Source: a virus. From it: a DNA stretch of 64,000 nt. The notes below the pieces were generated by a model. That model ran no database searches, was not told the origin of the DNA, and saw only the letters and a list, made by a program, of their open reading frames with translations. A program made the position numbers and the translations under genes. Below are positions 3,772-53,272 of the stretch, in pieces (the stretch's first letter is position 1; each line of letters starts with the position of its first letter). The stretch lies in the IMG/VR virus record IMGVR_UViG_2974715202_000001; one strand, given 5' to 3'.

Positions 3772-4359
3772 TCAAGGGATGGATGGGATTTGGAACTCGG
3801 CGCCGCCGAGGACATCAATGACGACCTCCCAGAGCGTCGGAACCGACCACTGATAACGGTCGAAGTCGGTTTCAGGATCGACTCCCAGGGTTACATAGGA
3901 AGTGGCCGGCCATTTGTGAACGGCGCCTTTTCGCATGAGAGTGGCCACGCGACCGTCACCGAGCGGATTCGTCCTGTGAGGAACATAAGCCGACATCGAG
4001 TATTGCTGTCCAGCGCCAATGATAAATTCTTGCCTCTGGCGCAGACATACAGAGCCTACAGGCTCCCAACCGCGACCGCCGCAGGCCTGGCGAGCCGAAG
4101 AGTGCTCATACCCTTCATGAGTCAATTCGCCGAGGCGCGCCGAACGGTCCACGTAATAATTTGTATTCTCCATAGACCCAACCAGAACCAAGGACTCGAA
4201 ATCGAATCGGTGATCGTGGATGGAAGAGTGATGGAAACAAAGCCGGCGCGGCAGCTACGGATGCCACACATGGAGGCGTCCGGCCGGGAGCTGGACCTGG
4301 ATGAAGCCCAGGCCGTGCAGCGTTATTTTGTCCTTCATCGGATCAGGGACGGTATCCAT
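3772..4359 (-). pseudogene. Cupin-like protein (195 codons) interrupted by an in-frame TAG at codon 35
   Basis: RBS GAGGA then ATG 4359. Reads MDTVPDPMKDKITLHGLGFIQVQLPAGRLHVWHP*LPRRLCFHHSSIHDHRFDFESLVLVG, in frame with ORF 3772..4191. TAG at 4255-4257. Confidence 0.75.
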
Positions 4360-34640: not shown

Positions 34641-35552
34641 TCAGTGGCTCGCGCCCCATCCGTCCAACCAGCAGTCGAAGACGGAATGGCGCGGCTTATC
34701 CTTCGCACCATGCGGGAAATGCGTGAATCGGATGACCTGACCATTGAGGGATTCTCTGTCCTTCCAGAGACGCTGCTTTTCATCGTGAGTGATGCTGGAT
34801 GCCGAAACCCTGAATGTCTGCCCAGGCCAAACTTTTTCGTTGCGGCAGACGAACGAACCGACCATGCCGGACGGAACAAGGTTTTCTGCGTGGCTGGAAC
34901 GGGCAGTGTAGCCAAGCTCATCGATGAAGGCTTCGTTTTCGTTGATCATCAACTCTTCGACGCCGATAATTTCGGCCTCTTCGGAATCGTACCGCTTGAA
35001 CTTCACACAATGGCCTTCTTTCGCGGTCGAGCGACCGAACTTGTAAATTCCATTCTTCTTCTTGCCAATGGAACCTTCGAAGCCCAGGCCGACGTGCCGC
35101 AGCTCCGTCTCGGTCATCTGTTCAACGGACGTAACCAGCTCCTGCTCGACCAGGTGGATGCGGGTCATTTCGAAGCGTTCCCGGAGTTCCTTGACCCGGT
35201 GCTCGGCCGCGTCGAGGCGTTCGTCAGTCGGCATTCTGGGATCGGTGAAATCGTCGAACACGTGGAACGACCAGTCCGGTTCGCCATCGCGGCGGCGAAG
35301 ATCGCCGGACGATTTCTGAAAGACTTTCGGGTCGGTGATGTCGCCGCAGACCAACTCGCCGTCCAGGCCGTTGAAAATCGGGTTGCTGAGGTATTGATTG
35401 ATAGCCGCGTTCGCCTGCGGCTTGAATGATCGGGTCAGAGCGTGGCCATCGTGGATGAAGGCGCGAAAGCCATCGATCTTCGGCGACATGAAGATTGGCA
35501 GTTGGCCTTCCAGCAGACCGGGATCGGCCATCGATGCGAACATCGGTTTCAT
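34641..35552 (-). CDS. lig: ATP-dependent DNA ligase
   Basis: KIDG motif I, FHVFD, EG...K and KFK motifs; C-terminal OB fold. Confidence 0.9.
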   Translation of the reverse strand: MKPMFASMADPGLLEGQLPIFMSPKIDGFRAFIHDGHALTRSFKPQANAAINQYLSNPIFNGLDGELVCGDITDPKVFQKSSGDLRRRDGEPDWSFHVFDDFTDPRMPTDERLDAAEHRVKELRERFEMTRIHLVEQELVTSVEQMTETELRHVGLGFEGSIGKKKNGIYKFGRSTAKEGHCVKFKRYDSEEAEIIGVEELMINENEAFIDELGYTARSSHAENLVPSGMVGSFVCRNEKVWPGQTFRVSASSITHDEKQRLWKDRESLNGQVIRFTHFPHGAKDKPRHSVFDCWLDGWGASH

Positions 35553-35605
35553 AGAATTCTCCAGAAAGAAGCCCGGCGAACCGGGCTGAATGGCGGTAAG
35601 CCGGA

Positions 35606-36160
35606 TCAGATGGTTTCGTTGGCGTGATTCAGCTCGGCCATGATCGACGCATAGCGCTCATCCGACTCCTTGATGAACACGCCGTTGTACATCACGCCTT
35701 TGCGATCCTTGATGGTGTCGTAGGCCGCCTGGTAGCATTCGAGCATGCTGGTGTCATGCTCTTCTGCCGCGTCGAACAGGGATGCGACTGCCATGACCAA
35801 ACTCTTGATGGCAAGCCACCGATTTCCGCGAGCCAGCGAGCCGGCCAGGTCGCCGAGTAATTTCAGATCTTCGCCGTAGGACGGGCGGCGCTCGACCGCC
35901 AAGACGAAGGCCGACATATGGTCGAACAGATTTTCGCCGAGCTGCGCGGCCATGATGGTGGCCACGACCATGACATCGCCGATGCCGTCTTTCACTTCGG
36001 CGGTGTTATTCTGGATGTAGGCTTCGCAAACTTCTGCGAATTCTTCTACCAGCTTGAGGAACTGATCTTTGGCCGAAGAGCCTTTGATCAGGTTACGGTC
36101 TGAACCCCATTTTACCACCAGGTCATGGAGTTCGCTATTCATGATTCGTTCGATGATCAT
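35606..36160 (-). CDS. MazG-like nucleotide pyrophosphohydrolase
   Basis: KLVEEFAEV, KDGIGDVMV and AYDTIKDRKG..NGVFIKE motifs. Confidence 0.8.
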   Translation of the reverse strand: MIIERIMNSELHDLVVKWGSDRNLIKGSSAKDQFLKLVEEFAEVCEAYIQNNTAEVKDGIGDVMVVATIMAAQLGENLFDHMSAFVLAVERRPSYGEDLKLLGDLAGSLARGNRWLAIKSLVMAVASLFDAAEEHDTSMLECYQAAYDTIKDRKGVMYNGVFIKESDERYASIMAELNHANETI

Positions 36161-40078: not shown

Positions 40079-40485
40079 TTGTTCTCCAGATCGGCGAGAA
40101 ATTGAATGATGTTGTCCAGTCCTTCTGCATGACTCGCGACTTCCACCAGGTCGCGGCTGTTAAGATCGAACAGATCGAGCATGGGATTCAGAAGCAGCCA
40201 ATCGGTTCCTATTTTCACCAGAACGAAGCCGCGACCGCCCCAGCCGATCCGCTCCCGAAGGAAAGGTATTTGCCCAGGCTCGAAACAGCGCGCCATTGGG
40301 CAGGTCGAGGTGCGCTTTGGCCAAGCTTCCAGAGCCTTGAACTCGACCCAAAACTGGACACCGTGACGATTCAGACAGATCGAATCGGACATGCCAGACC
40401 GGCGCGTCTCCAGGAAATCGACCAGGATTCTGCCTAGCGAGCGTTGCTTAAACACATTCGCGGCTTTCGTTTCGCGATCATTCAT
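40075..40485 (-). CDS. VRR-NUC-like / resolvase-type nuclease
   Basis: G.SD, WVEFK and Q..FL motifs (PD-(D/E)XK). Confidence 0.7.
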   Translation of the reverse strand: MNDRETKAANVFKQRSLGRILVDFLETRRSGMSDSICLNRHGVQFWVEFKALEAWPKRTSTCPMARCFEPGQIPFLRERIGWGGRGFVLVKIGTDWLLLNPMLDLFDLNSRDLVEVASHAEGLDNIIQFLADLENK

Positions 40486-43400
40486 CGCCATTCCCCTCTT
40501 CGGAATCTTTCTCGGCTTGCGCTGCCAACTTTGCTTTCTCGCGTTCGGTCAATATCCGCTTGACGGCCTTCACGATGAACATATCGATTCCGCTGAGCTT
40601 CCATCCTTTGATGAGGAACCAAGAGCCGGTCGGCGTTCCTTCGGCAATATTCTTCCCGTACTGAATATATTTTTCAGGGCGAATCCTGAAACGAATCGGT
40701 TGGTCAACCGAGTCATCCACGCACATCAAATCGAGGAACTGCGACTGGCCTTTGTACACCGGATTCTTTCCTTGGTCAGCCCTCTTCTTCTGGCGGATCG
40801 GTTCATTCTCATCCGACAGAACTTTCTTTACCATCTTGACGATAACTAGGCCATCGTCGCCATCGCGGATATCCCGAATGTTCTGAATGGGATTTCCGGA
40901 AGTCACCCCAACCAACTCAGGATTGTCATAGGCATGACCCCAGAGCGTATGAGACTCGTTCAAATCCGCGAATTGAACCTCAGAATTGGACAAACTCGCG
41001 GCAACTTTCTCCCAATCCTGAAGCGTTTTAAGATGGGGGCCGGCCAGCTCTTTATATTGCGCCTTCAACTCCTTCAGTTCAGCTTTCAACTCCTTGAGAT
41101 CAGCTTTGAGCAGCTTCTCCAGTTCTTTGTCTTTGCTGACTTTCGCCGAAAGAATCTGGGCTTCCAGCGCGGCAACGTCATCAGACTTATCCTCTACATC
41201 CTGCGCCGAAATCGGGCAATTGGCCAGGGCGATCCTCGCGGCCTTGACTTCCTCGCGAAGACGCAAGAACCGCTCGGCCTTAGCCGGGCCGAAGCCTTTG
41301 GCGTTCATGATGCCGCCGATCAGGCGTCCGTCCGCTACCACCCAGTTGAGTTCGGAATGCTCCGGGTCCAGGGCCGTATATTCTACGCCTTCTTTGGCCA
41401 ATTCGCGAAGGATAGACACAGTTTGCTGGTCGTCCTTCGCCGCCCGGAGGCACGCGGCCGCGTATTCCAGGCGATGATACCGCTTCATGTAGCAGGTCCA
41501 GTACGTCACCACGGCATAGCTTACCGAGTGGGAGCGGTTGAATCCCCAGGCTCCGAACGTCACCATTTCCTGCCAAACTCGGTGAGCGTCTTCCGGGGCG
41601 ACGCCTATGGTCTTGGCGCCTTCGATGAACAGTTCTCGGCGCTTGTTGAAGAACTCTTCACCCTTTCGCGCCGACATCGCTTTCCGGATTGCCGACGTTT
41701 GTTCCCAGTCGAACTGACCAATGTCCTTCACAATTGACATGATCTGTTCTTGGTACAGGAACACGCCATACGTACCAGACAGATACTGCTCGACCTGCGG
41801 AATGGTATAGGTCACAGGCTCGCGACCGGCCACGCGCTCGATGTATTTAGTGGCCATTCCCGAAGACAACGGACCCGGACGAGCGAGCGCCGTAATGTGG
41901 TCGATGTTTTCGAACGCGGTGATGTTGATAGCATTGGCGACCGAGCGGACGGCCTGGCCTTCGAACTGGAAGATGCCTGACATCTTGTCTTCGTTGAGAA
42001 CATCCAAAACCGCCTTGTCGTTCAACGGTAAGTCGTACAACTCTTGTGCGGTCACGCAATTCGCATCTTGGATGACGCCAAGCGTTCGAAGGCCGAGCGC
42101 ATCAATCTTGAGAAGATTCAAATATTCCGAATCAGGCTTGTCGAGCTGCGCGATACCTTCAGAAGTCACCGTACAGAAATCGATTACTTCATCGTTGCAG
42201 ACCAGGATGCCTGCCGCGTGGACGCCGGAGTGGGATGGGTGAATTTCGAGGTCTCCCATGCAGGCGGACGCAATCTCATACTTTTCGCGGAAGTCGCGGC
42301 CGGGTTGAGTTTTTTCGAACGTGTCCTCCAATCCTTTTCCATATCGTTCGTCCGCCGAAGTATATTCGATGATCGAGTTTTTGATGTTGTCGGTATCATG
42401 GAATGGAATGCCGAAGCGCTTCCCGACGTGAGCGATAACCGACGCGGCCTTCAGCGTATTGATGTTACCGAGCTTCACCACGTTCCAAGTGCCGTATTTC
42501 TGCTGGAGATATTCGAACACTAGATAGCGATGGGTATCGGCGAAGTCGATATCTATATCGGGAAGATCGGAACGGGAAATGTCGATAAAGCGCTGGAAGA
42601 GAAGGCGATGCGGGAGCGGATCAACCTCGGTAATACCCAGCAGGTAGCAGACCAAAGAGCCGGCCGAAGAGCCGCGAGCCGGGCCGACCAGCATGTGCTT
42701 CTTGGCGAACGCAACTAGATCGGCTACCACCAGGAAGTAGCTGTCGAAGTCTTTCAGCTGAATTTGCTTGATTTCTTCCTGGAACCGATCTTCGTAAGCT
42801 TGGGTCCATTCCTTGATGTGGCCGCGACTGAGACGGTAGGCTTGGCCCTCGCGAGCCAGGGCGACGATATCACCATCTAGGTGGATCATTGGCGCTTTTG
42901 CCAGTTTTACATCGACCAGCTGCTCGACCACCGCATGCGTATTGGCCACGGCCTCGTCGAACTCTTCGCGGGTCATGATATGGCGAAGACGGGTCCACAA
43001 CTCTTCCTCAGTCGCGATGTGGCGAAGTCCGACCGATTCCCGAACCTTCCAGGCCGAAGCAAAATCTACATGGCCGATGGACGGCATGTCGTTGTAGGAG
43101 GTAATCACCACAGGCTTGCCGAACGCCCTGGCCGTCTCCATGGCGCCGTGCGCGGCGACCATCGACGCAGGATTGATGTCAATGTAGTCGATTCCGGCCA
43201 AGTCCAAGTGGGCATAAGCCTCGCCGGCAAACTTGATGATGCCGTCAGCATCCTGGAATTCTTTGGGCGACAAGCCTTGATTCTGGACAGTCTTCGAAGT
43301 AAGGCGATAGAATTTTCTGGTATCTTTGGCTAGCGCCCAGGCCTTCAGCTTCAGCTCTTTTTCGCCATCATCGGCGCATTTGATCGGGATTTCCATGCCG

Positions 43401-43585
43401 AATCCGCGAGGCAATTCTGCTTTGGTAGCTGCCTGCTCCCAGCGGACGTGACCCCAGGTCCCATCATCGACGATGGCAACAAAAGGTGATTCGATTTCTT
43501 TGGCGCGCTCGATGATTTCCGGAAACCTGCCATATGCGGCGCCGTATGAGTAGCCGGAGCGAACGCGGAGTTGAGGGAAAGACAT
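40478..43585 (-). CDS. dnaE: DNA polymerase III alpha subunit (family C)
   Basis: GPARGSSAGSLV, PDIDIDF, KIDALGL, YQEQIM and FNRSH motifs; N-terminal degenerate PHP domain. Confidence 0.95.
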   Translation of the reverse strand: MSFPQLRVRSGYSYGAAYGRFPEIIERAKEIESPFVAIVDDGTWGHVRWEQAATKAELPRGFGMEIPIKCADDGEKELKLKAWALAKDTRKFYRLTSKTVQNQGLSPKEFQDADGIIKFAGEAYAHLDLAGIDYIDINPASMVAAHGAMETARAFGKPVVITSYNDMPSIGHVDFASAWKVRESVGLRHIATEEELWTRLRHIMTREEFDEAVANTHAVVEQLVDVKLAKAPMIHLDGDIVALAREGQAYRLSRGHIKEWTQAYEDRFQEEIKQIQLKDFDSYFLVVADLVAFAKKHMLVGPARGSSAGSLVCYLLGITEVDPLPHRLLFQRFIDISRSDLPDIDIDFADTHRYLVFEYLQQKYGTWNVVKLGNINTLKAASVIAHVGKRFGIPFHDTDNIKNSIIEYTSADERYGKGLEDTFEKTQPGRDFREKYEIASACMGDLEIHPSHSGVHAAGILVCNDEVIDFCTVTSEGIAQLDKPDSEYLNLLKIDALGLRTLGVIQDANCVTAQELYDLPLNDKAVLDVLNEDKMSGIFQFEGQAVRSVANAINITAFENIDHITALARPGPLSSGMATKYIERVAGREPVTYTIPQVEQYLSGTYGVFLYQEQIMSIVKDIGQFDWEQTSAIRKAMSARKGEEFFNKRRELFIEGAKTIGVAPEDAHRVWQEMVTFGAWGFNRSHSVSYAVVTYWTCYMKRYHRLEYAAACLRAAKDDQQTVSILRELAKEGVEYTALDPEHSELNWVVADGRLIGGIMNAKGFGPAKAERFLRLREEVKAARIALANCPISAQDVEDKSDDVAALEAQILSAKVSKDKELEKLLKADLKELKAELKELKAQYKELAGPHLKTLQDWEKVAASLSNSEVQFADLNESHTLWGHAYDNPELVGVTSGNPIQNIRDIRDGDDGLVIVKMVKKVLSDENEPIRQKKRADQGKNPVYKGQSQFLDLMCVDDSVDQPIRFRIRPEKYIQYGKNIAEGTPTGSWFLIKGWKLSGIDMFIVKAVKRILTEREKAKLAAQAEKDSEEGNGDE

Positions 43586-44139
43586 TATGCGGCCTCCATT
43601 GCTTGATACGCCCGATATACTCCCATGCGCTTGCAGACTTCGTGGAGCAGCCGCACGTCGTCCAATGCCCGGTGCTTCTGAACATAAGGGCCGCAGTAGT
43701 GCTCATACAGATGCTGCAGCCGCATGCGGTGGCCGAACAATGGCGCCGACTCTTCTACAGTACAGATATCGAGCGATGGGAAGTTGACTTCTTCCAAACC
43801 GAGCTTTCCGCGAGCCAAATCGCAGGTAAGCATGAATTTATCGAATGGAAGGTTGTGGGCAATATTTGCGTCGGCCTTCGAAAAGAAATCGCGAACTTTC
43901 TGGCGTTGATCGAGGAACGATGGGTGTTTGATTAAGTCTTCATTCTTCAGGCCTGTGATCTTTGTAATGATTTCTTCGATCACAATCCCAGGGTTGCAGA
44001 TGAACTCGACTTCATCCAAAATCGTCTCGCCATCGGTGATCACTCCGGCGAATTCAATGATCCTCGGTTGCTTTCTCAGACTTACCCTTTGGTGGAACGG
44101 GAGTCCTGTGGTCTCAGTATCCCATACGGCGAATCTCAT
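43585..44139 (-). CDS. DEDDh 3'-5' exonuclease (epsilon-like)
   Basis: DTETTG, AHNLPFD and HRALDD motifs; coupled to dnaE. Confidence 0.9.
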   Translation of the reverse strand: MRFAVWDTETTGLPFHQRVSLRKQPRIIEFAGVITDGETILDEVEFICNPGIVIEEIITKITGLKNEDLIKHPSFLDQRQKVRDFFSKADANIAHNLPFDKFMLTCDLARGKLGLEEVNFPSLDICTVEESAPLFGHRMRLQHLYEHYCGPYVQKHRALDDVRLLHEVCKRMGVYRAYQAMEAA

Positions 44140-44161
44140 GTCTGTTCCCTCTTATGTCGAA

Positions 44162-44187
44162 AGGCCGGCTGCTTTCGCGACCGGCCT
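44162..44187 (-). terminator. Probable terminator
   Basis: AGGCCGG/CCGGCCT stem with a short U-tract on the minus strand. Confidence 0.45.
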
Positions 44188-44214
44188 GAAGAGTATACCG
44201 CAACGGCGCAGGGT

Positions 44215-45243
44215 TTATGCCTTCTGTCCGTCTTTCGGCGTGATGCGGCCGGAGTGCATGGTGGCGTGGACAAACGCTGAATAGTTGATCAAGTCAAATA
44301 CCGAATCGTCATCCTCAAACCCACTATTCGCCAGGCGAGTGAGTTTTCCAACTGTATGCATCACGAACAGGGCGAGCCGATGGTCATCTGCGGTCTTCGC
44401 CACCATGCCATTCGGGAAGAGGATTTCCATGATCTTGCCATACATCAGATCATTTCGACCATAAGCGCTCTGGCGGTCACGGAAAATTTCTGCGGCTGAG
44501 GACAGGTTGTTGAGAACATCCTCCACGAAATCATCGGGATCGGCATCACCGTCACCAGGCCAGGCGGATTCCATGGCGAACGGCGCTGCTGAGTCTTCGG
44601 TCGGCTCTTCGGTCGGCTCTTCGGCCGGTGCTTCGTAGAGCGGAGACGGGGACTGCGCAAACGCCTCGTCGAGGGTAGGGGCGGAGTAGGAGGCTGCGGC
44701 GATCGTCTCGCCTGCCATGTCGTTGGGAGCGCTACCGGGGTCGCTATCGGTTGCGACGGCGAAGAACGGCGCGTCGCAGCCTTCCAGGTCCAGGATGTAG
44801 GCGTCGATGCCCAGGCCCTTGTAGGCGTCGATGATATCCTGGCGGTCATCGAATGCCGCGACGATCCTGGTCAGGCCGTCGATCTTCTTCAGAATATCTA
44901 GCGCGACTGAGCGCTTGAACTCCGGCGCCGGCTGGGTGTTTCCATACTCCCGCATGATGAGCTCATATTCGCGATGTTCGGCGATACCCAGGTCGCGATG
45001 GATTTTCGCCCTGGTCTGGAAATAGTTGTTGTCGGTTCGGCCGGTGATGAAGAAAATCATCAGGTCGGCGTCGATGGCGTTACGGATTCGTGCGACTGCA
45101 TGCGGATTGAGCTTGTCCTTGTCGAGACGGGAATGGTACTCGTCCCATTGCTTTTCCAGGGCGAAGCTTTTACGGTGGCTATCGTCGAAGACGCATCCGT
45201 CCAGATCGAAGATCATGATGCCATTCTTGGGTTTTCGTGCCAT
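44215..45243 (-). CDS. HAD phosphatase (PNK-phosphatase-like) fused through an acidic linker to a DUF1599/DUF6378-like helical domain
   Basis: DLDGC, ITGR and FDDR HAD motifs; C-terminal RQSAYG...KLTR...DSVFDLINYS. Confidence 0.75.
   Translation of the reverse strand: MARKPKNGIMIFDLDGCVFDDSHRKSFALEKQWDEYHSRLDKDKLNPHAVARIRNAIDADLMIFFITGRTDNNYFQTRAKIHRDLGIAEHREYELIMREYGNTQPAPEFKRSVALDILKKIDGLTRIVAAFDDRQDIIDAYKGLGIDAYILDLEGCDAPFFAVATDSDPGSAPNDMAGETIAAASYSAPTLDEAFAQSPSPLYEAPAEEPTEEPTEDSAAPFAMESAWPGDGDADPDDFVEDVLNNLSSAAEIFRDRQSAYGRNDLMYGKIMEILFPNGMVAKTADDHRLALFVMHTVGKLTRLANSGFEDDDSVFDLINYSAFVHATMHSGRITPKDGQKA
44594..44628. repeat. 12-bp tandem repeat (about 3 copies) encoding EEPT
   Basis: TCTTCGGTCGGC twice plus TCTTCGGCCGG. 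Confidence 0.8.
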
Positions 45244-45245
45244 AT

Positions 45246-45437
45246 TCAGATTCCCTCGCTTTCTGCTTTCTGGGTGATGGTTTTCTCGATGAAAGTGCCA
45301 TCGGAAGTTAGACGGAACAGTTCACCGTTCTGAACCAAATCGAACGATTTCACGTTCATGGTGACGCGAATTGATTCGCTGCCGTTGGTCACTTCTACTT
45401 GTGCGACATCACCAACCTTCTCGATGATGATCTTCAT
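45246..45437 (-). CDS. Hypothetical protein, 63 aa
   Basis: ATG 45437 just after the ThyX-like stop. Confidence 0.6.
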   Translation of the reverse strand: MKIIIEKVGDVAQVEVTNGSESIRVTMNVKSFDLVQNGELFRLTSDGTFIEKTITQKAESEGI

Positions 45438-45438
45438 G

Positions 45439-46356
45439 CTACATTGACTTCCCATTGACCGCTACAGGATTGGCCTCTTGTTTCTCCGATCCCCAGAACT
45501 CGCGGCGCAGCTCTTCCTGCTCGGCCGAGCGATCCATCCATGGACGATAGAACTTGCACTGATAGATCGGTTTCACCGGCAACTCAACCACAGGAATCTG
45601 GCCGGGCTTCGTCTCCAGAGCGGACATGAAGCGGTCATAGGATTGCTCATGGATCTCATCTTCATTCAGAACCTTCGATCCATAGCGCGGGAAGGCACAG
45701 GAGCCAGTGGCGACGCAGTGCGGCTGGAGCAGACTATCGAACATAGGATAGACTTCCAGAACCAGTCGGCGCATTTCGCGGAAGGCTTCCTGATACTCCC
45801 CTTGCGTACGAACACACAGGCGAACTTTCGCCATGTCGCTGAGAGTCCGCAGATTGAACTTGGCCGCGATCTTCGTTTCCATGTTGGAAGGGATGATCGC
45901 GCGGGCATCCTGGAGCGATGCGCCGGCATCCAAGAGCTTCTGGTAACTGGTCTGCGCGTCGGCGATGGCATCGTGCCACAGGCGGTTCAGCTCTTCGCGG
46001 GCGTGATAGGTCGGGTCCGGCTCGCCATTGGCCGTAGCCTGCTCATCGAAATCCCAGCGGAATGCTTCCGGCTGAACAACGGCGCTAACCTCCAGGGCGC
46101 GACTGGTTTCCTGCTGGTAAGCGCCGGTCCGCGTCCGAACGAGTTGATGGGTGAAATTCTTGCTCACACCCTCGATCTGGAAAATGAAGTCCACGAATTC
46201 GAACGGCGAGCGAATGGTGTCAAGCATGTACTTCCAGTGGTCGAGCTTTTCGGCTTCGGTCATGGTCGTCGGGTCTTGGCCGCGCATGCGAGTGGATTTC
46301 GTCCCCAGGAGAAGTTCCCAGGCGTTCTGGGTGTAACTTATCAGAGAAATTTTCAT
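45439..46356 (-). CDS. thyX: Divergent ThyX-like flavin-dependent enzyme
   Basis: SPFEF, THQLVRTR...QQETSR, QDAR.IIP and NLRTL motifs. Confidence 0.8.
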   Translation of the reverse strand: MKISLISYTQNAWELLLGTKSTRMRGQDPTTMTEAEKLDHWKYMLDTIRSPFEFVDFIFQIEGVSKNFTHQLVRTRTGAYQQETSRALEVSAVVQPEAFRWDFDEQATANGEPDPTYHAREELNRLWHDAIADAQTSYQKLLDAGASLQDARAIIPSNMETKIAAKFNLRTLSDMAKVRLCVRTQGEYQEAFREMRRLVLEVYPMFDSLLQPHCVATGSCAFPRYGSKVLNEDEIHEQSYDRFMSALETKPGQIPVVELPVKPIYQCKFYRPWMDRSAEQEELRREFWGSEKQEANPVAVNGKSM

Positions 46357-46562
46357 CAGGAATCTTCCGGAATTGGCGTGAAAGTGAATTTCTCCACCAG
46401 TGCCATGGCCAACGCTTGTGCGTCTTCCTTATGAAGACCGTATCTGTCGATTTCTTCGGCCAGCAATCTGCAAGCCTCCAGACGGTCTTCATACTCTTCG
46501 GCGTGGCACATGGACGAAAAGATAGTGCCGTCAGAGGTCCGGTACACCAGTTCAATGGACAT
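46356..46562 (-). CDS. Hypothetical protein, 68 aa
   Basis: RBS GAGGA; Y.TSDG.IF motif. Confidence 0.7.
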   Translation of the reverse strand: MSIELVYRTSDGTIFSSMCHAEEYEDRLEACRLLAEEIDRYGLHKEDAQALAMALVEKFTFTPIPEDS

Positions 46563-46573
46563 TACTGCGATCC

Positions 46574-46840
46574 TCAGTAGCAGCGGATGATTTCGGCGCG
46601 AATATCGCGACGGTCCAGGTAATGCTCAATAATCTTGTCGCGGGCGCGCTCGGCCTCTTCGCGACTGCCGAACGACAGGTTGAACGAAGTGAAAGGCTTA
46701 TCGTCCAGGCGTCCATCGCCGATCAGGTACAGGATGCCTACCAGCACGAAAGACGGCGCTGTCTGTCGCGTTTGCGGCGGGTCGATTTGCATTTCGAGGA
46801 AAGACATGGGAACCTCTTCAGGATGGTCTGGTGAGTACAT
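46574..46840 (-). CDS. Hypothetical protein, 88 aa (MYSPDHPEEV...)
   Basis: Own RBS CAGGAG and TAATG junction at 46838-46842. Confidence 0.65.
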   Translation of the reverse strand: MYSPDHPEEVPMSFLEMQIDPPQTRQTAPSFVLVGILYLIGDGRLDDKPFTSFNLSFGSREEAERARDKIIEHYLDRRDIRAEIIRCY

Positions 46841-47059
46841 TAATAGCGCTCCTGCTGAGAGGCCACTGTTTCCGGTTCGTAGATGAGCATGTCCACGATT
46901 TCCGGGCACTGGCTTTTCACCCAGTCGATTGCCGCCCGCCATCGTGGTGTCGGCGCCGAAGGTGAAAGTTCGATAAGACTCATGGATGTACGGCGAACCC
47001 ATGAAGTCGCGCTCGGTCGTGCGAGAAATGACTACTTTGATATTAACAATCCGGCCCAT
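46840..47059 (-). pseudogene. 72-aa gene with a +1 frameshift that fuses it to the downstream gene
   Basis: 220 nt from ATG to the coupled TAA. Removing one C at 46935-46937 restores ...MAAAIDWVKSQCPEIVDMLIYEPETVASQQERY*. Confidence 0.65.
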
Positions 47060-47261
47060 CTTCGGCCTCCACTTTAGCGATGATATCGGACAGGCTCAGC
47101 TTCTCGCCGTTCAGAAAATAACTGGCGCGAAACTTCCTGTCGCCTTCTGGCCCGACGATTCGGGCTGTTATTGTGAGACTCCCGCCGCCAAGGGCATCCG
47201 TGTCCCTGAAGAAAGCCAGCAGCGCCCGCTTGAGCGCTGCCTCGCGAGGATCGACTGCCAT
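47043..47261 (-). CDS. Hypothetical protein, 72 aa
   Basis: TAATG coupling at 47261. Confidence 0.65.
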   Translation of the reverse strand: MAVDPREAALKRALLAFFRDTDALGGGSLTITARIVGPEGDRKFRASYFLNGEKLSLSDIIAKVEAEDGPDC

Positions 47262-47491
47262 TAACCTACCACATTCCAGCCGTGCTGGGCGCACCATACC
47301 GCGCCAGTTCCCGCAGGAAGACTGTTAAGAAGGAATACAGGGGTCAGGCGGCCATCCTCGGTCATGTGGATGAAGTAGCGTGCACTTTCACCGAGCCATT
47401 CGGCCTTGGCGATGGCGCGTTCGAGGTTGATCTTGGTGGCGTAGGTCTTGGTGGTGTTTTTGTCGGTGGAGAAGGTTACTTCGCGGGCCAT
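47261..47491 (-). CDS. Hypothetical early protein, 76 aa
   Basis: RBS AAAGGA directly behind a conserved promoter. Confidence 0.75.
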   Translation of the reverse strand: MAREVTFSTDKNTTKTYATKINLERAIAKAEWLGESARYFIHMTEDGRLTPVFLLNSLPAGTGAVWCAQHGWNVVG

Positions 47492-47516
47492 TTTGTCGAT
47501 TCCTTTTGGTTGAAGG

Positions 47517-47588
47517 GTTTCGCGTTTCGATGAGGGAATACTACTCTCACCTGGCTCAGAAGTAAAGCACTTTGTGTAAATTATTTCA
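47517..47588 (-). promoter_or_regulatory. Sigma70-like early promoter
   Basis: TTTACT (47561-47566), 17 nt, TAGTAT (47538-47543); AAATAAT upstream and ATCGAAACGCGAAAC downstream. Confidence 0.75.
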
Positions 47589-48582
47589 CGAACATCTTCT
47601 TGGCCTTCTGATAAGACGAAGAAGTCATCAGGCGCTCGATGACGTCCATGTCCGAAACCAAATCGTCCAGAAGGACGTTTCGCCAGGTCGCGAACCGACC
47701 GAGCGAGAAGATGCCGGCTTCATGGGTGAGATTCCAGATCATGGATTCGCGCTCGTCGCGACCGAGCGGAATGATTTTACCCTTGGTCTGGACGGTCGGC
47801 TCGCCGTCCGGAATGAGATTCTTCTTCCTGATGCCGAAGGCCGAACAAACTTCATCCAGGTCCCAGTTGCTGTCCCATTCGATGGTTTCGATTTCACCAG
47901 CCGCAGTCTCCACGATGCCCTTAGTAACGGATTCGACGATAAGGGTGTCGCCGGTGATGGACGCTCGAAACGTTCCCACTTCGGGACCAGGGAAATACAC
48001 CGTCTGGAAGACATCACAAGGAATGGAAAGCTTGTACCGACTCACGACGATGGAGGTTCCTTCGCCGAATGACGGGTCGATCCCCAGGTCCAGTCCTGCC
48101 GCAGCCAGATTGGCGCGGAATGGTGCTGTGCTGATGATATTAACGTGATCATCTTGCCGGCGAAGGAACTGGAAGAAAGAGGCGTCGAAAGGCCTGCCCC
48201 AGCTGATGCGATTCGCTAGCTTAGCGACCAGCTGCTCATAGTAGTCGGCCGGCGCGATCCAGCGCTTTTCGGTCGCCATGTTCCAGATGGACCGATCCGA
48301 CAGGCCGCCCGTTACTTTCCTGGAGTACATGTTGCAGTAGTCGATGCGCGGCTGGGAAACGAACTCGCCGTCAATGTAGATGGCCTTGTGTACGGTGACT
48401 TCGCGGAATGGGATGCCGGTGAGTTGGCCGATGACTGGTGAGCGGAACCGCAAGAGCGCGTTGTGGCGTTCCTTGCTCGTCGGCGTCGCCGCGTCGATGA
48501 TTTGGGCTTGAGGGAAACGATGCGCGGCGATCAGGCCGGCGAGTCCGGCTCCCACGATGATAACTTTGTGATCAGGAATCAT
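47581..48582 (-). CDS. FAD-dependent oxidoreductase (UDP-galactopyranose mutase-like architecture)
   Basis: IIVGAGLAGL Rossmann motif; C-terminal IFSLGRFATW. Confidence 0.75.
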   Translation of the reverse strand: MIPDHKVIIVGAGLAGLIAAHRFPQAQIIDAATPTSKERHNALLRFRSPVIGQLTGIPFREVTVHKAIYIDGEFVSQPRIDYCNMYSRKVTGGLSDRSIWNMATEKRWIAPADYYEQLVAKLANRISWGRPFDASFFQFLRRQDDHVNIISTAPFRANLAAAGLDLGIDPSFGEGTSIVVSRYKLSIPCDVFQTVYFPGPEVGTFRASITGDTLIVESVTKGIVETAAGEIETIEWDSNWDLDEVCSAFGIRKKNLIPDGEPTVQTKGKIIPLGRDERESMIWNLTHEAGIFSLGRFATWRNVLLDDLVSDMDVIERLMTSSSYQKAKKMFVK

Positions 48583-52300: not shown

Positions 52301-53272
52301 ATGAACAATAAACCGACGCTGAATCACCACCATCAAACTGCATTGTTGTATCTGTATAACAATCCAAATCAGCCGGCCTTCACAGGTCCCAACAATCAGG
52401 CGCTCAATGAACTTCGGCAGATGGGGTATGTAAAGGCGAAAGAATTCGAAAACTGGGCAGGTACCGGCCATCTTAGGATGGAATGGACGCTCACCAAAGC
52501 CGGGATTGAGCGCGTCGAAGTCGGGCTTCTGGGGAAGCGCGACGCTTGCAAGGGAATCGGTCAGACTTTGCTTCGGGGGAAGTGTACTGTTTGCAATGGC
52601 CGCGGCCAGGGGTGGATCAGCGAATGGTCGCAGAAGCCAATTGAAGATAATCCTCAAATTGTCCCTAAGTTCGAAAAGACCGATGCGAATAGGCTTGCAG
52701 ACGCCATTGAAGAAATCGGCCGGCTGGAAAAGGCACTGGCCGAATCCGAAAAGCGCGGGAGCGAGCTGGCCGCGAGCTATTGTGACGGCGTAGTCGGCGA
52801 TGAATACGGCCATCCTTATTGTCGTTATAAAGTGGAACGCGACGCCGCCTTGGCCGAAGTCGAGCGCCTGCGAGAATCAAAAGGCGATCCCTCTGGCAGC
52901 TTCGACCGTTGTATGAAGATGATGTACGAGCGCGACGAGAATGCAAAACGACTCGACGCCGCCTTGGCCAGGGTCGCGGAGCTTGAAGGGAAGTTAACGG
53001 ACTGGGTGCGCGAAGGGTTCCGGCTCAACGAGGCGCTAGCGGTCGCCAAGGCTCAACCCAGCGTGCCGGAGGGGTGGAAGCTCGTACCGATGGACCCGAC
53101 ATCGCAGATGACCTCTGTCGGTCAGTCCCTGCGTTATGACGCGGTAAACAGCATCGGCGAGATTTACCGGCAAATGCTCGCCGTAGCTCCCTCACCCATC
53201 GATCCGGCCGCGCATCCTCAGCCGTGCCAGCAACCACAGGCCCATCCTGCCCGCTGCGGATGCGAGCGGTAA
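52301..53272 (+). CDS. Mosaic accessory protein, 323 aa
   Basis: N-terminal wHTH-like segment, degenerate Zn finger, (E/L)RDAALA.V..L repeats and VPEGWKLVP module. Confidence 0.7.
   Translation: MNNKPTLNHHHQTALLYLYNNPNQPAFTGPNNQALNELRQMGYVKAKEFENWAGTGHLRMEWTLTKAGIERVEVGLLGKRDACKGIGQTLLRGKCTVCNGRGQGWISEWSQKPIEDNPQIVPKFEKTDANRLADAIEEIGRLEKALAESEKRGSELAASYCDGVVGDEYGHPYCRYKVERDAALAEVERLRESKGDPSGSFDRCMKMMYERDENAKRLDAALARVAELEGKLTDWVREGFRLNEALAVAKAQPSVPEGWKLVPMDPTSQMTSVGQSLRYDAVNSIGEIYRQMLAVAPSPIDPAAHPQPCQQPQAHPARCGCER

Follow-up and report, generated by a model that had tools for sequence, protein, structure and literature searches.

The 64,000-nucleotide stretch of viral DNA considered here (IMG/VR record IMGVR_UViG_2974715202_000001, hereafter “the window”) comes from a Pbunavirus, a genus in which two phages carry sugar-like adducts on thymidine. 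On its minus strand, between positions 40478 and 48582, lies an 8.1-kb segment in which a ThyX-like flavoenzyme, an orphan flavoprotein with the fold of UDP-galactopyranose mutase (UGM) and protoporphyrinogen oxidase (PPOX), and a HAD phosphatase joined to a DUF6378-like domain stand beside the phage's own DnaE polymerase. We see an even chance that these three proteins are the conserved core of a pathway for hypermodified thymidine in a TG context, and about the same chance that at least one gene of this cassette is needed for the modification. The modification itself is already published; the candidate genes proposed for it are new. The case is a comparative one, in which the cassette emerges as the best candidate: it is conserved across distant phages, putative tailoring enzymes are inserted into it, the active site of its ThyX-like member is remodelled throughout the lineage, and a TG-specific gap in palindrome avoidance tracks it.

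Thymidine Modification in Pbunavirus

Yee et al. described new nucleosides of 362 and 390 Da in the virion DNA of phages F8 and 14-1, where about a quarter of T is replaced, in a TG context, and where the adducts on thymidine are sugar-like (Yee et al., 2025, bioRxiv 10.1101/2025.03.31.646159). Restriction sites containing TG are blocked in this DNA, while EcoRI, HindIII, XbaI, DraI, and BsaI, whose sites lack TG, do cut. The same article covers the chemistry and the END-nuclease defence; it leaves the biosynthetic genes unassigned, and reports that Pbunavirus is without homologues of known modification genes. The mark is also felt at the bench, as native Pbunavirus DNA gives low Nanopore quality and failed assemblies, which PCR copying cures (bioRxiv 10.64898/2026.07.08.737226). 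Which genes, then, write it? In the literature searched, we found no paper assigning genes to the Pbunavirus modification. A search for public Nanopore runs, in which miscalls at TG might be seen, listed none.

The window belongs to this genus, since its 8.1-kb segment is 99% identical to Pseudomonas phage Epa39, and the 276 phage records that it matches come almost entirely from PB1-like P. aeruginosa viruses. Most proteins of the module are 98–100% identical to those of F8. Within the window, 27.3% of all T precede G, which is the value expected from complete TG modification and matches the reported quarter. A first-pass annotation of the window had mentioned reports that Pbunavirus DNA is modified, and for F8 and 14-1 this is correct. 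It had also proposed that the genes of the segment make a modified, possibly sugar-decorated pyrimidine: a sugar-like pyrimidine is indeed real in F8 and 14-1, but a pathway confined to the nucleotide pool leaves the choice of T before G unexplained. Its expectation of non-standard chemistry, without glycosyltransferase or 5-hydroxymethyluracil (5hmU) kinase, agrees with Pfam and PHROG scans of the window's non-structural open reading frames (ORFs), which turned up no enzyme known to hypermodify thymidine and no glycosyltransferase, P-loop 5-hmU kinase, ThyA-type hydroxymethylase, aGPT-Pplase, or 2-oxoglutarate (2OG) dioxygenase.

A Cassette Conserved Across Distant Phages

IMG/VR was searched with the flavoprotein family, yielding 247 stretches, and 80 loci were kept for a survey of gene order. 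The succession flavoprotein, ThyX-like, HAD, DUF6378-like, exonuclease, DnaE is found in essentially all of the kept loci that are long enough. In every sufficiently long locus the flavoprotein lies immediately upstream of the ThyX-like gene, and the exonuclease adjoins DnaE in all loci surveyed. Co-occurrence across phage genomes, proposed by the first-pass annotation as a check on its idea, is thus seen as a single gene order in about 80 distant loci. The cassette and its DnaE neighbourhood are present in the Wifceviruses of E. coli and in 40-kb podoviruses, namely Cronobacter Ss1 and Vibrio VA-RY-3. A 206-kb Rhizobium jumbo phage carries the trio of flavoprotein, ThyX-like enzyme (with an RNR triplet), and HAD, with no adjacent DnaE. 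Actinobacterial and cyanobacterial phages with a ThyX gene were recovered by the ThyX search and not by the one made with the flavoprotein.

The podovirus Ss1 narrows the list of shared parts considerably. Only four window genes have a BLAST-detectable homologue there: DnaE, the exonuclease, the ThyX-like enzyme, and the flavoprotein. A Pam3_Gp34-like protein and a DUF7307 protein were considered as writers acting at the DNA level and set aside, both having positional counterparts in Ss1 without similarity; a search for the function of the Pam3_Gp34-like protein returned nothing. The positional counterpart of the SNF2 gene in Ss1 likewise shows no similarity to the window gene.

Between the core genes of the relatives sit further enzymes. 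Among them are an SDR (46 loci), a weakly VOC-like protein (45 loci), and additional HAD genes. Single cases include a carbamoyltransferase (L006, 11561–13285), a radical-SAM/SPASM enzyme with an FkbM methyltransferase (L053, 5179–6859), a class II aldolase (L082, 4486–5196), and, in Vibrio VA-RY-3, a sulfotransferase (L091, 6369–7124). These single-case inserts would be expected to give chemically different adducts in the phages that carry them. Known hypermodification clusters combine a conserved core with variable tailoring enzymes (PMC8989533), and a cassette core accompanied by variable enzymes for hydroxyl-rich substrates is, by analogy, the same pattern.

The ThyX-Like Enzyme

The ThyX-like flavoenzyme (45439–46356, minus strand) is 305 residues long, and residues 30–204 match the Pfam Thy1 family (PF02511) at 6e-31. 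With phmmer, the protein matches seven solved ThyX sequences, and alignment to these structures reveals what has changed. Where ThyX has RHRxxSxxExSxRY, the window protein reads RTRTGAYQQETSRA: RHR has become RTR, Ala takes the place of the lid Tyr and Thr that of the motif Ser, and the NE pair is QQ. A further histidine has given way to Ile, the window reading TIRSPFE for the His-containing HxSPFE; canonical phage ThyX read EHMSPFE or GHWSVFE, and the ThyX-like lineage TIRSPFE or TIPSSWE. This position corresponds to His53 of T. maritima ThyX, which we take to be the histidine stacking on the folate pterin. In canonical enzymes the RHR triplet holds the FAD phosphates, Ser and the arginines hold deoxyuridine monophosphate (dUMP), and the Tyr following the last Arg is a lid over uracil C5 and flavin N5 (PMC6514825). 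The dUMP-binding arginines R74, R76, R86, R152, and R179 are invariant in the ThyX-like protein and its relatives, and K66 stands where the M. tuberculosis enzyme has Arg87.

Decay does not account for these changes, because they are conserved. In 37 relatives (56–73% identity) neither the RTR triplet nor the motif Arg varies, and the remaining motif positions are invariant or nearly so; the same 37 proteins share four invariant Cys and a C-terminal tail, NPVAxNGKSM. There is also a second, shorter subtype (type B), with no Cys and no His, an RTR or RNR triplet, and Val or Ile for the lid Tyr. Every ThyX-like sequence that was aligned or motif-read has RTR or RNR, never RHR, and across the aligned sample of both subtypes the lid Tyr is replaced by Ala, Val, or Ile, Ser by Thr, and His by Ile. 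The ThyX of Thermus phage TMA and cyanophage S-RIM12, on the other hand, retain RHR...SxRY and the His. The scores follow the same division: against the NCBIfam thyX equivalog TIGR02170 (cut-off 87.9 bits), the window protein narrowly fails with 86.9 bits, less than half the canonical score (200.9 for TMA, 173.5 for S-RIM12), while the Ss1 homologue passes with 88.9.

A side branch may exist among the actinophages. The ThyX-like protein of Mycobacterium phage Gumball (L092, gene 67–1167) has RQR, lacks the motif His, and is prolonged at its C-terminus by a long stretch containing Cys. For these actinophages no partner flavoprotein was found, and they perhaps hold a second divergent ThyX lineage.

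The Flavoprotein and the HAD Fusion

The flavoprotein (47581–48582, minus strand, 333 residues) is an orphan, recognizable as an FAD-type protein by its GAGLAG dinucleotide-binding motif. No Pfam family matches it above threshold, FAD_binding_2 being sub-threshold. Its AlphaFold 2 (AF2) model (pLDDT 87) is closest, among solved structures, to the UGM of T. cruzi (4dsg_B; VIA-align Z 19.7, root-mean-square deviation (rmsd) 3.8 Å over 304 residues, 17% identity), the likeness taking in the FAD-binding, helical, and beta-sheet domains; PPOX comes next (Z 17.8), and amine oxidases score about 16. More than 2000 proteins make up the family, every one of them unannotated and on a phage-like contig, and many of its Arg and Lys residues are invariant.

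The HAD fusion (44215–45243, minus strand, 342 residues) consists of a PNKP-type HAD phosphatase, an acidic repeat linker, and a DUF6378/MazZ-like four-helix domain. The HAD part (HAD_PNKP 1.3e-10; 1.8e-11 for residues 1–165) has its core and its DxDG nucleophile motif, in IFDLDGCVFDD. The C-terminal domain of the window protein matches DUF6378 weakly, at an E-value of 0.005 (17.6 bits, below the cut-off of 27.1), and DUF6378 matches 19 of 30 homologues of the fusion, at best with 1.3e-5. This domain folds as four helices (AF2 pLDDT 90). In the AlphaFold DB it comes closest to a “dATP/dGTP diphosphohydrolase N-terminal domain” (TM 0.69, rmsd 1.7 Å, 29% identity, E 1.6e-3), and several DUF6378 entries are also among the matches; solved structures in the PDB gave none at E ≤ 0.001. 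The name “polynucleotide kinase” that databases give to the protein is wrong, because what follows the phosphatase is the acidic linker and the DUF6378-like helices, with no kinase or P-loop domain. Of 59 distinct relatives, 40 have the HAD and DUF6378-like domains in a single protein; the other 19 encode them in separate adjacent genes, an arrangement which argues for a functional link. The linker itself is encoded in the window by a 12-bp tandem repeat, TCTTCGGTCGGC (2.9 copies, 44594–44628), specifying PTEE-type acidic residues, and is the main difference between the HAD fusions of F8, 14-1, and the window (80–87% identity).

A MazG-like nucleotide pyrophosphohydrolase of 184 residues lies outside the segment, at 35606–36160 on the minus strand (phrog_1992, 2e-80; weak Pfam MazG, about 1e-3). 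Together with the ligase it occupies a region, 34641–36160 (minus strand), in which identity to F8 falls to 75% for the ligase and 81% for the MazG-like protein, amid flanking genes at 98–100%; this suggests a recombinational mosaic patch.

The protein calls of the first-pass annotation stand up well to these comparisons. All of the genes that it named lie at its coordinates on the minus strand of the ORF list, the MazG-like gene upstream at 35.6 kb included. Its ThyX with altered catalytic motifs is recognized in the RTR triplet and the loss of both the lid Tyr and the folate-stacking His, and its HAD phosphatase fused to a DUF1599/DUF6378-like helical domain in the HAD_PNKP match and the 19 homologues that hit DUF6378. 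Its “mutase-like flavoenzyme” is right at the level of the fold.

A Palindrome Signature of Possible TG Protection

A phage that shields the T in TG would have no need to avoid restriction sites with TG/CA in them. The 64 six-base palindromes were therefore compared, observed against expected (O/E), under a maximal-order Markov model. In the window, palindromes with TG/CA number 261 against 258 expected (O/E 1.01), and those without, 682 against 921 (0.74). Among palindromes with four G+C, and thus of equal GC content, O/E is 1.08 with TG/CA and 0.63 without. GC-rich palindromes lacking TG/CA are strongly avoided: CGATCG occurs once against 37 expected, CCGCGG twice against 30, GTCGAC 8 times against 37, GAGCTC once against 15, and CTCGAG and CCCGGG not at all against 10 each. 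F8 and 14-1 show a pattern like that of the window. The dinucleotide TA, for its part, stands at 0.54 of expectation in the window.

The signature extends well beyond the genus. In 59 distant cassette loci (0.97 Mb), O/E is 0.94 with TG/CA and 0.70 without, or 0.94 and 0.64 at four G+C (Mann–Whitney p 1.4e-6). The direction is the same in 57 of the 59 (sign test 6e-15, for loci that are related by descent), all 16 TG/CA palindromes rank between 37 and 62 of 64, and TG/CA is the only one of the ten dinucleotide classes with such an exemption. The whole genome of Ss1 gives 0.96 against 0.69, and the Wifcevirus region 0.90 against 0.74. In controls that lack the cassette, avoidance extends to TG/CA palindromes: 70 loci of LUZ24-terminase relatives have 0.64 with and 0.79 without TG/CA (0.55 and 0.45 at four G+C), and the genomes of LUZ24 and phiKMV 0.62 against 0.71 and 0.61 against 0.45, respectively. 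These controls amount to one clade, the LUZ24-TerL family, plus two genomes, with a lower GC content than the cassette loci; the LUZ24-TerL family was used because the phiKMV RNA polymerase, as a seed, gave only 7 near-identical loci. The TG-exempt palindrome signature thus tracks the cassette, even into the podovirus Ss1, which shares just four genes with the window by BLAST.

LUZ24 itself has, beside its replication genes, a cluster of amidoligase, COOH-NH2 ligase, glutamine amidotransferase, and gamma-glutamyl cyclotransferase (L095, 7377–13075). This cluster could relate to modification, so LUZ24 is no guaranteed unmodified control.

A Possible Route to the Modified Base

ThyX and UGM are two classic enzymes in which an electrophilic carbon is carried on the N5 of a reduced flavin, and the proposed chemistry would be a flavin-N5 covalent carbon transfer of this kind. 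T. maritima ThyX can alkylate dUMP from a free aldehyde (formaldehyde), without folate, via an N5 carbinolamine, and UGM forms a flavin N5-sugar adduct (PMC8316439). The ThyX-like enzyme would still bind FAD and dUMP, since the arginines are kept. With the lid Tyr and the folate-stacking His gone, it could make room for a larger donor derived from a sugar, such as an aldehyde or an anomeric carbon, where canonical ThyX takes the folate methylene. Capture or preparation of the sugar would be the role of the UGM-like flavoprotein, and C1 of a pentose would then be moved reductively to C5 of dUMP, giving 5-(2,3,4,5-tetrahydroxypentyl)-dUMP. The HAD domain would act as a phosphatase on a sugar or nucleotide and the MazG-like enzyme as an editor of the nucleotide pool, and DnaE and its exonuclease would replicate with the modified product or tolerate it. 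In relatives, the SDR, the aldolase, and the carbamoyl-, sulfo-, and methyltransferases would tailor the chain. Confinement to TG would fall either to a context-selecting DnaE/exonuclease or to the flavoprotein, acting on DNA after replication.

The nucleoside of this product, 5-(tetrahydroxypentyl)-deoxyuridine (C14H22N2O9), has a mass of 362.34 Da, equal to that of the F8 nucleoside, and is formally a “thymidine bearing a tetritol.” The formula C15H22N2O10 (390.35 Da) is consistent with a six-carbon analogue that has cyclised, or with a pentoside of 5-hydroxymethyldeoxyuridine (5-hmdU). Mass cannot choose between models here, because an ether or glycoside linkage to 5-hmdU fits both formulae equally well. 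Taken specifically, transfer of a sugar carbon is an unlikely mechanism. Bolder still, and improbable as a whole, is the proposal that the RTR/lid-less ThyX lineage forms a new enzyme class, a flavin-dependent dUMP C5-(polyhydroxyalkyl) transferase which would take its carbon from a pentose rather than from folate with the help of the UGM-like flavoprotein, the product being confined to TG by DnaE/DnaQ or by a DNA-acting flavoprotein. Pbunavirus, Wifcevirus, Ss1-like podoviruses, and many uncultured phages, a supergroup that cuts across virion types, would then share a TG-specific sugar-thymine that can be read from sequence.

Some other candidates were tried and discarded. A T-dioxygenase route finds no 2OG-dioxygenase domain among the non-structural ORFs scanned, and the preprint on phage T-dioxygenases is silent on Pbunavirus. 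The cupin-like ORF011 homologue (3772–4359, minus strand), picked out by the first-pass annotation, has no Pfam hit and is interrupted in the window by an in-frame TAG at codon 35 of its long frame (HVWHP*LPRR), which makes it dispensable at best. It is intact in F8 and 14-1 (182 residues), and the TAG may be a recent inactivation, a sequencing error, or a site of read-through. ORF066, considered as the enzyme that distinguishes F8 from 14-1, is no enzyme but a K/E-rich coiled coil that ends in an acidic tail. Among sizeable genes, ORF070 differs most between these two phages, which bear different adducts. Its homologue in the window (52301–53272, plus strand) is hypervariable, 58% identical to that of F8, with coiled-coil-like PHROG matches and a length of 323 residues, compared with 398 in F8 and 434 in 14-1.

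Weighing the Alternatives

A number of observations weigh against giving the cassette this role, and several of them favour a plainer account, possible though in our view rather doubtful, in which the genes serve ordinary nucleotide supply. A divergent but genuine ThyX would raise deoxythymidine monophosphate (dTMP) for rapid replication, the flavoprotein would be its redox partner or an unrelated accessory, the HAD, DUF6378-like, and MazG-like proteins would sanitise the pool, and the TG mark would come from other, unrecognised Pbunavirus proteins, for which the many ORFs of unknown function in the genome leave ample room. The ThyX-like enzyme has a Thy1 domain, keeps all its dUMP contacts, and scores within 1 bit of a thyX cut-off which its Ss1 homologue passes; it may hence simply make dTMP. 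The genes lie inside a replication and nucleotide module, and in the Rhizobium phage the trio sits with dUTPase and ribonucleotide reductase, as ordinary nucleotide genes would. The cassette moreover travels with the DnaE replication module, so that shared descent explains part of the synteny. TG specificity is beyond any pool enzyme: a protein acting on dUMP cannot create it alone, and non-TG thymines appear to be plain T, hence a pool route needs either an unprecedented context-selective replicase or an extra step on DNA, with the flavoprotein as sole shared candidate. F8 and 14-1 differ in their adducts, yet their ThyX-like enzymes and flavoproteins are 94–97% identical. The flavoprotein is UGM-like in fold only, PPOX and the amine oxidases being nearly as close; among PDB sequences its family profile matches the GxGxxG segment alone, in an amine oxidase, with no sequence-level match to UGM, so that “mutase-like” describes its fold and nothing more. 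As to the palindromes, the 4-bp CATG and TGCA are equally depleted in the cassette and control sets and so count neither way, and the Rhizobium jumbo phage shows no palindrome avoidance of any kind, which makes it uninformative in this test. What sits poorly with plain dTMP supply is the lineage-wide loss of the lid Tyr, the RHR His, and the folate-stacking His, all kept by canonical phage ThyX scoring 174–201 bits, together with the constant pairing with an orphan flavoprotein that the actinobacterial and cyanobacterial ThyX phages lack in our searches. Sugar-type tailoring enzymes inserted within the cassette, and a palindrome signature that follows it into a podovirus with four shared genes, are equally hard to reconcile with such a housekeeping role.

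The requirement for a step on DNA may also be taken as the starting point, and the flavoprotein made the writer. It would act after replication at TG, oxidising the thymine methyl to an electrophilic exocyclic methylene which the hydroxyl of a sugar or sugar alcohol would trap as an ether, the ThyX-like enzyme supplying only dTMP and the HAD fusion preparing the donor. TG specificity, with plain T elsewhere, calls for just such a step; the hydride abstraction can be modelled on PPOX and the amine oxidases, and gp47 of PaMx11 is an FAD oxidoreductase working on modified bases in polymeric DNA (PMC8989533). The many invariant Arg and Lys residues, and the place of the flavoprotein among the four genes shared with Ss1, point the same way, and the ether-linked products noted above fit the masses. 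Even so, we consider this scheme quite improbable, the least likely of those discussed here. No DNA-binding domain is recognised in the flavoprotein, and the isoelectric point of the family, looked at as a hint of DNA binding, is near neutral and so uninformative in itself. Flavin-dependent activation of a thymine methyl has no precedent, the best structural match, UGM, acts on nucleotide sugars and not on polymers, and the remodelling of ThyX throughout its lineage is left unexplained. A joint role of the ThyX-like enzyme, flavoprotein, and HAD fusion in TG-context hypermodification stays, with its even chance, the reading that we prefer.

The Rest of the Replication Module

Of the Pbunavirus replication module, the segment represents the half concerned with nucleotide chemistry. 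DnaE (40478–43585, minus strand, 1035 residues) matches Pfam DNA_pol3_alpha (1.5e-60), DNA_pol3_finger (2.3e-39), weakly PHP, and phrog_405 (4e-292). The adjoining DnaQ/DEDD 3′-5′ proofreading exonuclease (43585–44139, minus strand, 184 residues) matches RNase_T (5.2e-18), phrog_192, and NCBIfam models of the DnaQ-type epsilon subunit. With Pol III alpha catalytic and finger domains and a DEDD exonuclease, this is a bacterial-type replicase; the two are ordinary replication genes, though co-inherited with the cassette. Pfam and PHROG scans further place a ligase, an SNF2 helicase, a Dda-like helicase, and two primases in the module.

Small Pbunavirus-specific ORFs fill the remaining space on the minus strand. 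One of 69 residues (45246–45455, phrog_5379), homologous to F8 ORF058, was not found in the distant loci surveyed. Four more, homologous to F8 ORF060–064 and belonging to PHROGs without assigned function, lie between the ThyX-like enzyme and the flavoprotein (46356–47491). Among these, a 161-residue ORF (46574–47059, minus strand) matches phrog_5103 over residues 1–41 and phrog_4948 over residues 85–161; it corresponds to two separate F8 genes, ORF062 and ORF061, and resembles a fusion or a truncation of ORF062. The “tail assembly chaperone” label that databases attach to ORF062 seems misplaced in a replication module.

Significance

Pbunaviruses are among the phages most used in the therapy of Pseudomonas aeruginosa infections, and the modification decides which restriction systems and END nucleases stop them, besides disturbing Nanopore sequencing. 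The present comparison results in a short list of candidates, the equivalents of F8 gp57 (HAD fusion), gp59 (ThyX-like), and gp65 (flavoprotein), together with a chemical hypothesis that predicts the mass observed in F8. The palindrome signature suggests the same protection in the Wifceviruses of E. coli, in podoviruses of Cronobacter and Vibrio, and in many uncultured phages. If the ThyX-like enzyme does transfer a sugar carbon, this would be a new reaction for a well-studied family of drug targets; if it does not, the cassette would be ordinary nucleotide supply and the writer would lie elsewhere.

Comparison with Known Systems

Canonical ThyX (T. maritima, M. tuberculosis, H. pylori; TIGR02170) and the ThyX-like enzyme share the Thy1 fold and the FAD/dUMP arginines, but the window protein differs by its four extra invariant Cys and its conserved C-terminal tail, in addition to the motif changes described above. 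The flavoprotein, with its 333 residues, is shorter than the UGMs (Glf, about 370–510 residues), and the likeness is one of fold.

The closest chemical precedent is, by analogy, found in Bacillus phage SP-15. Its DNA contains 5-(4',5'-dihydroxypentyl)uracil (DHPU), in which a five-carbon polyol is joined through carbon to uracil C5. About half of T gives way to this base, which takes up label from ribose and is synthesised as a nucleoside triphosphate; members of the Thy1 family are among the phage's proteins, one of them adjoined by a reductase gene (Kropinski et al., 2018, PMC5977210, with work of the 1970s cited therein). The mass of the F8 nucleoside is that of the DHPU deoxynucleoside plus two oxygens. 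The genes tell a less favourable story, one to be added to the points against our preferred assignment: SP-15 gp130 is only 17% identical to the ThyX-like enzyme, and the ThyX motif region is missing from the alignment. With this low identity, and with a reductase unrelated to the cassette SDR, gp130 and gp129 are ruled out as cassette homologues. The SP-15 genes are themselves candidates, and this phage is not known to have a TG context.

The pathways of phages M6, ViI, SP10, PhiW-14, and PaMx11 resemble the proposed one in another way, through a partial, sequence-dependent replacement of T and the combination of pool and DNA steps (Lee et al., 2018, 2021; PMC5889632, PMC8989533). They too have variable tailoring enzymes, a flavin enzyme and radical SAM enzymes included, beside their core genes (PMC5889632, PMC8989533). 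They rely on a dUMP hydroxymethylase of the ThyA family together with a P-loop 5-hmdU DNA kinase and the amino-acid:DNA transferase aGPT-Pplase; scans of the window's non-structural ORFs found none of the three. The synthase-like enzyme of the window is instead of the ThyX family, which is unrelated to ThyA, and the group appended to the base resembles a sugar, where theirs is an amino acid or polyamine. Nearest of all is the system of F8 and 14-1 itself: the window phage, known here from its sequence, is of the same genus, and its TG/CA palindromes are exempt from avoidance.

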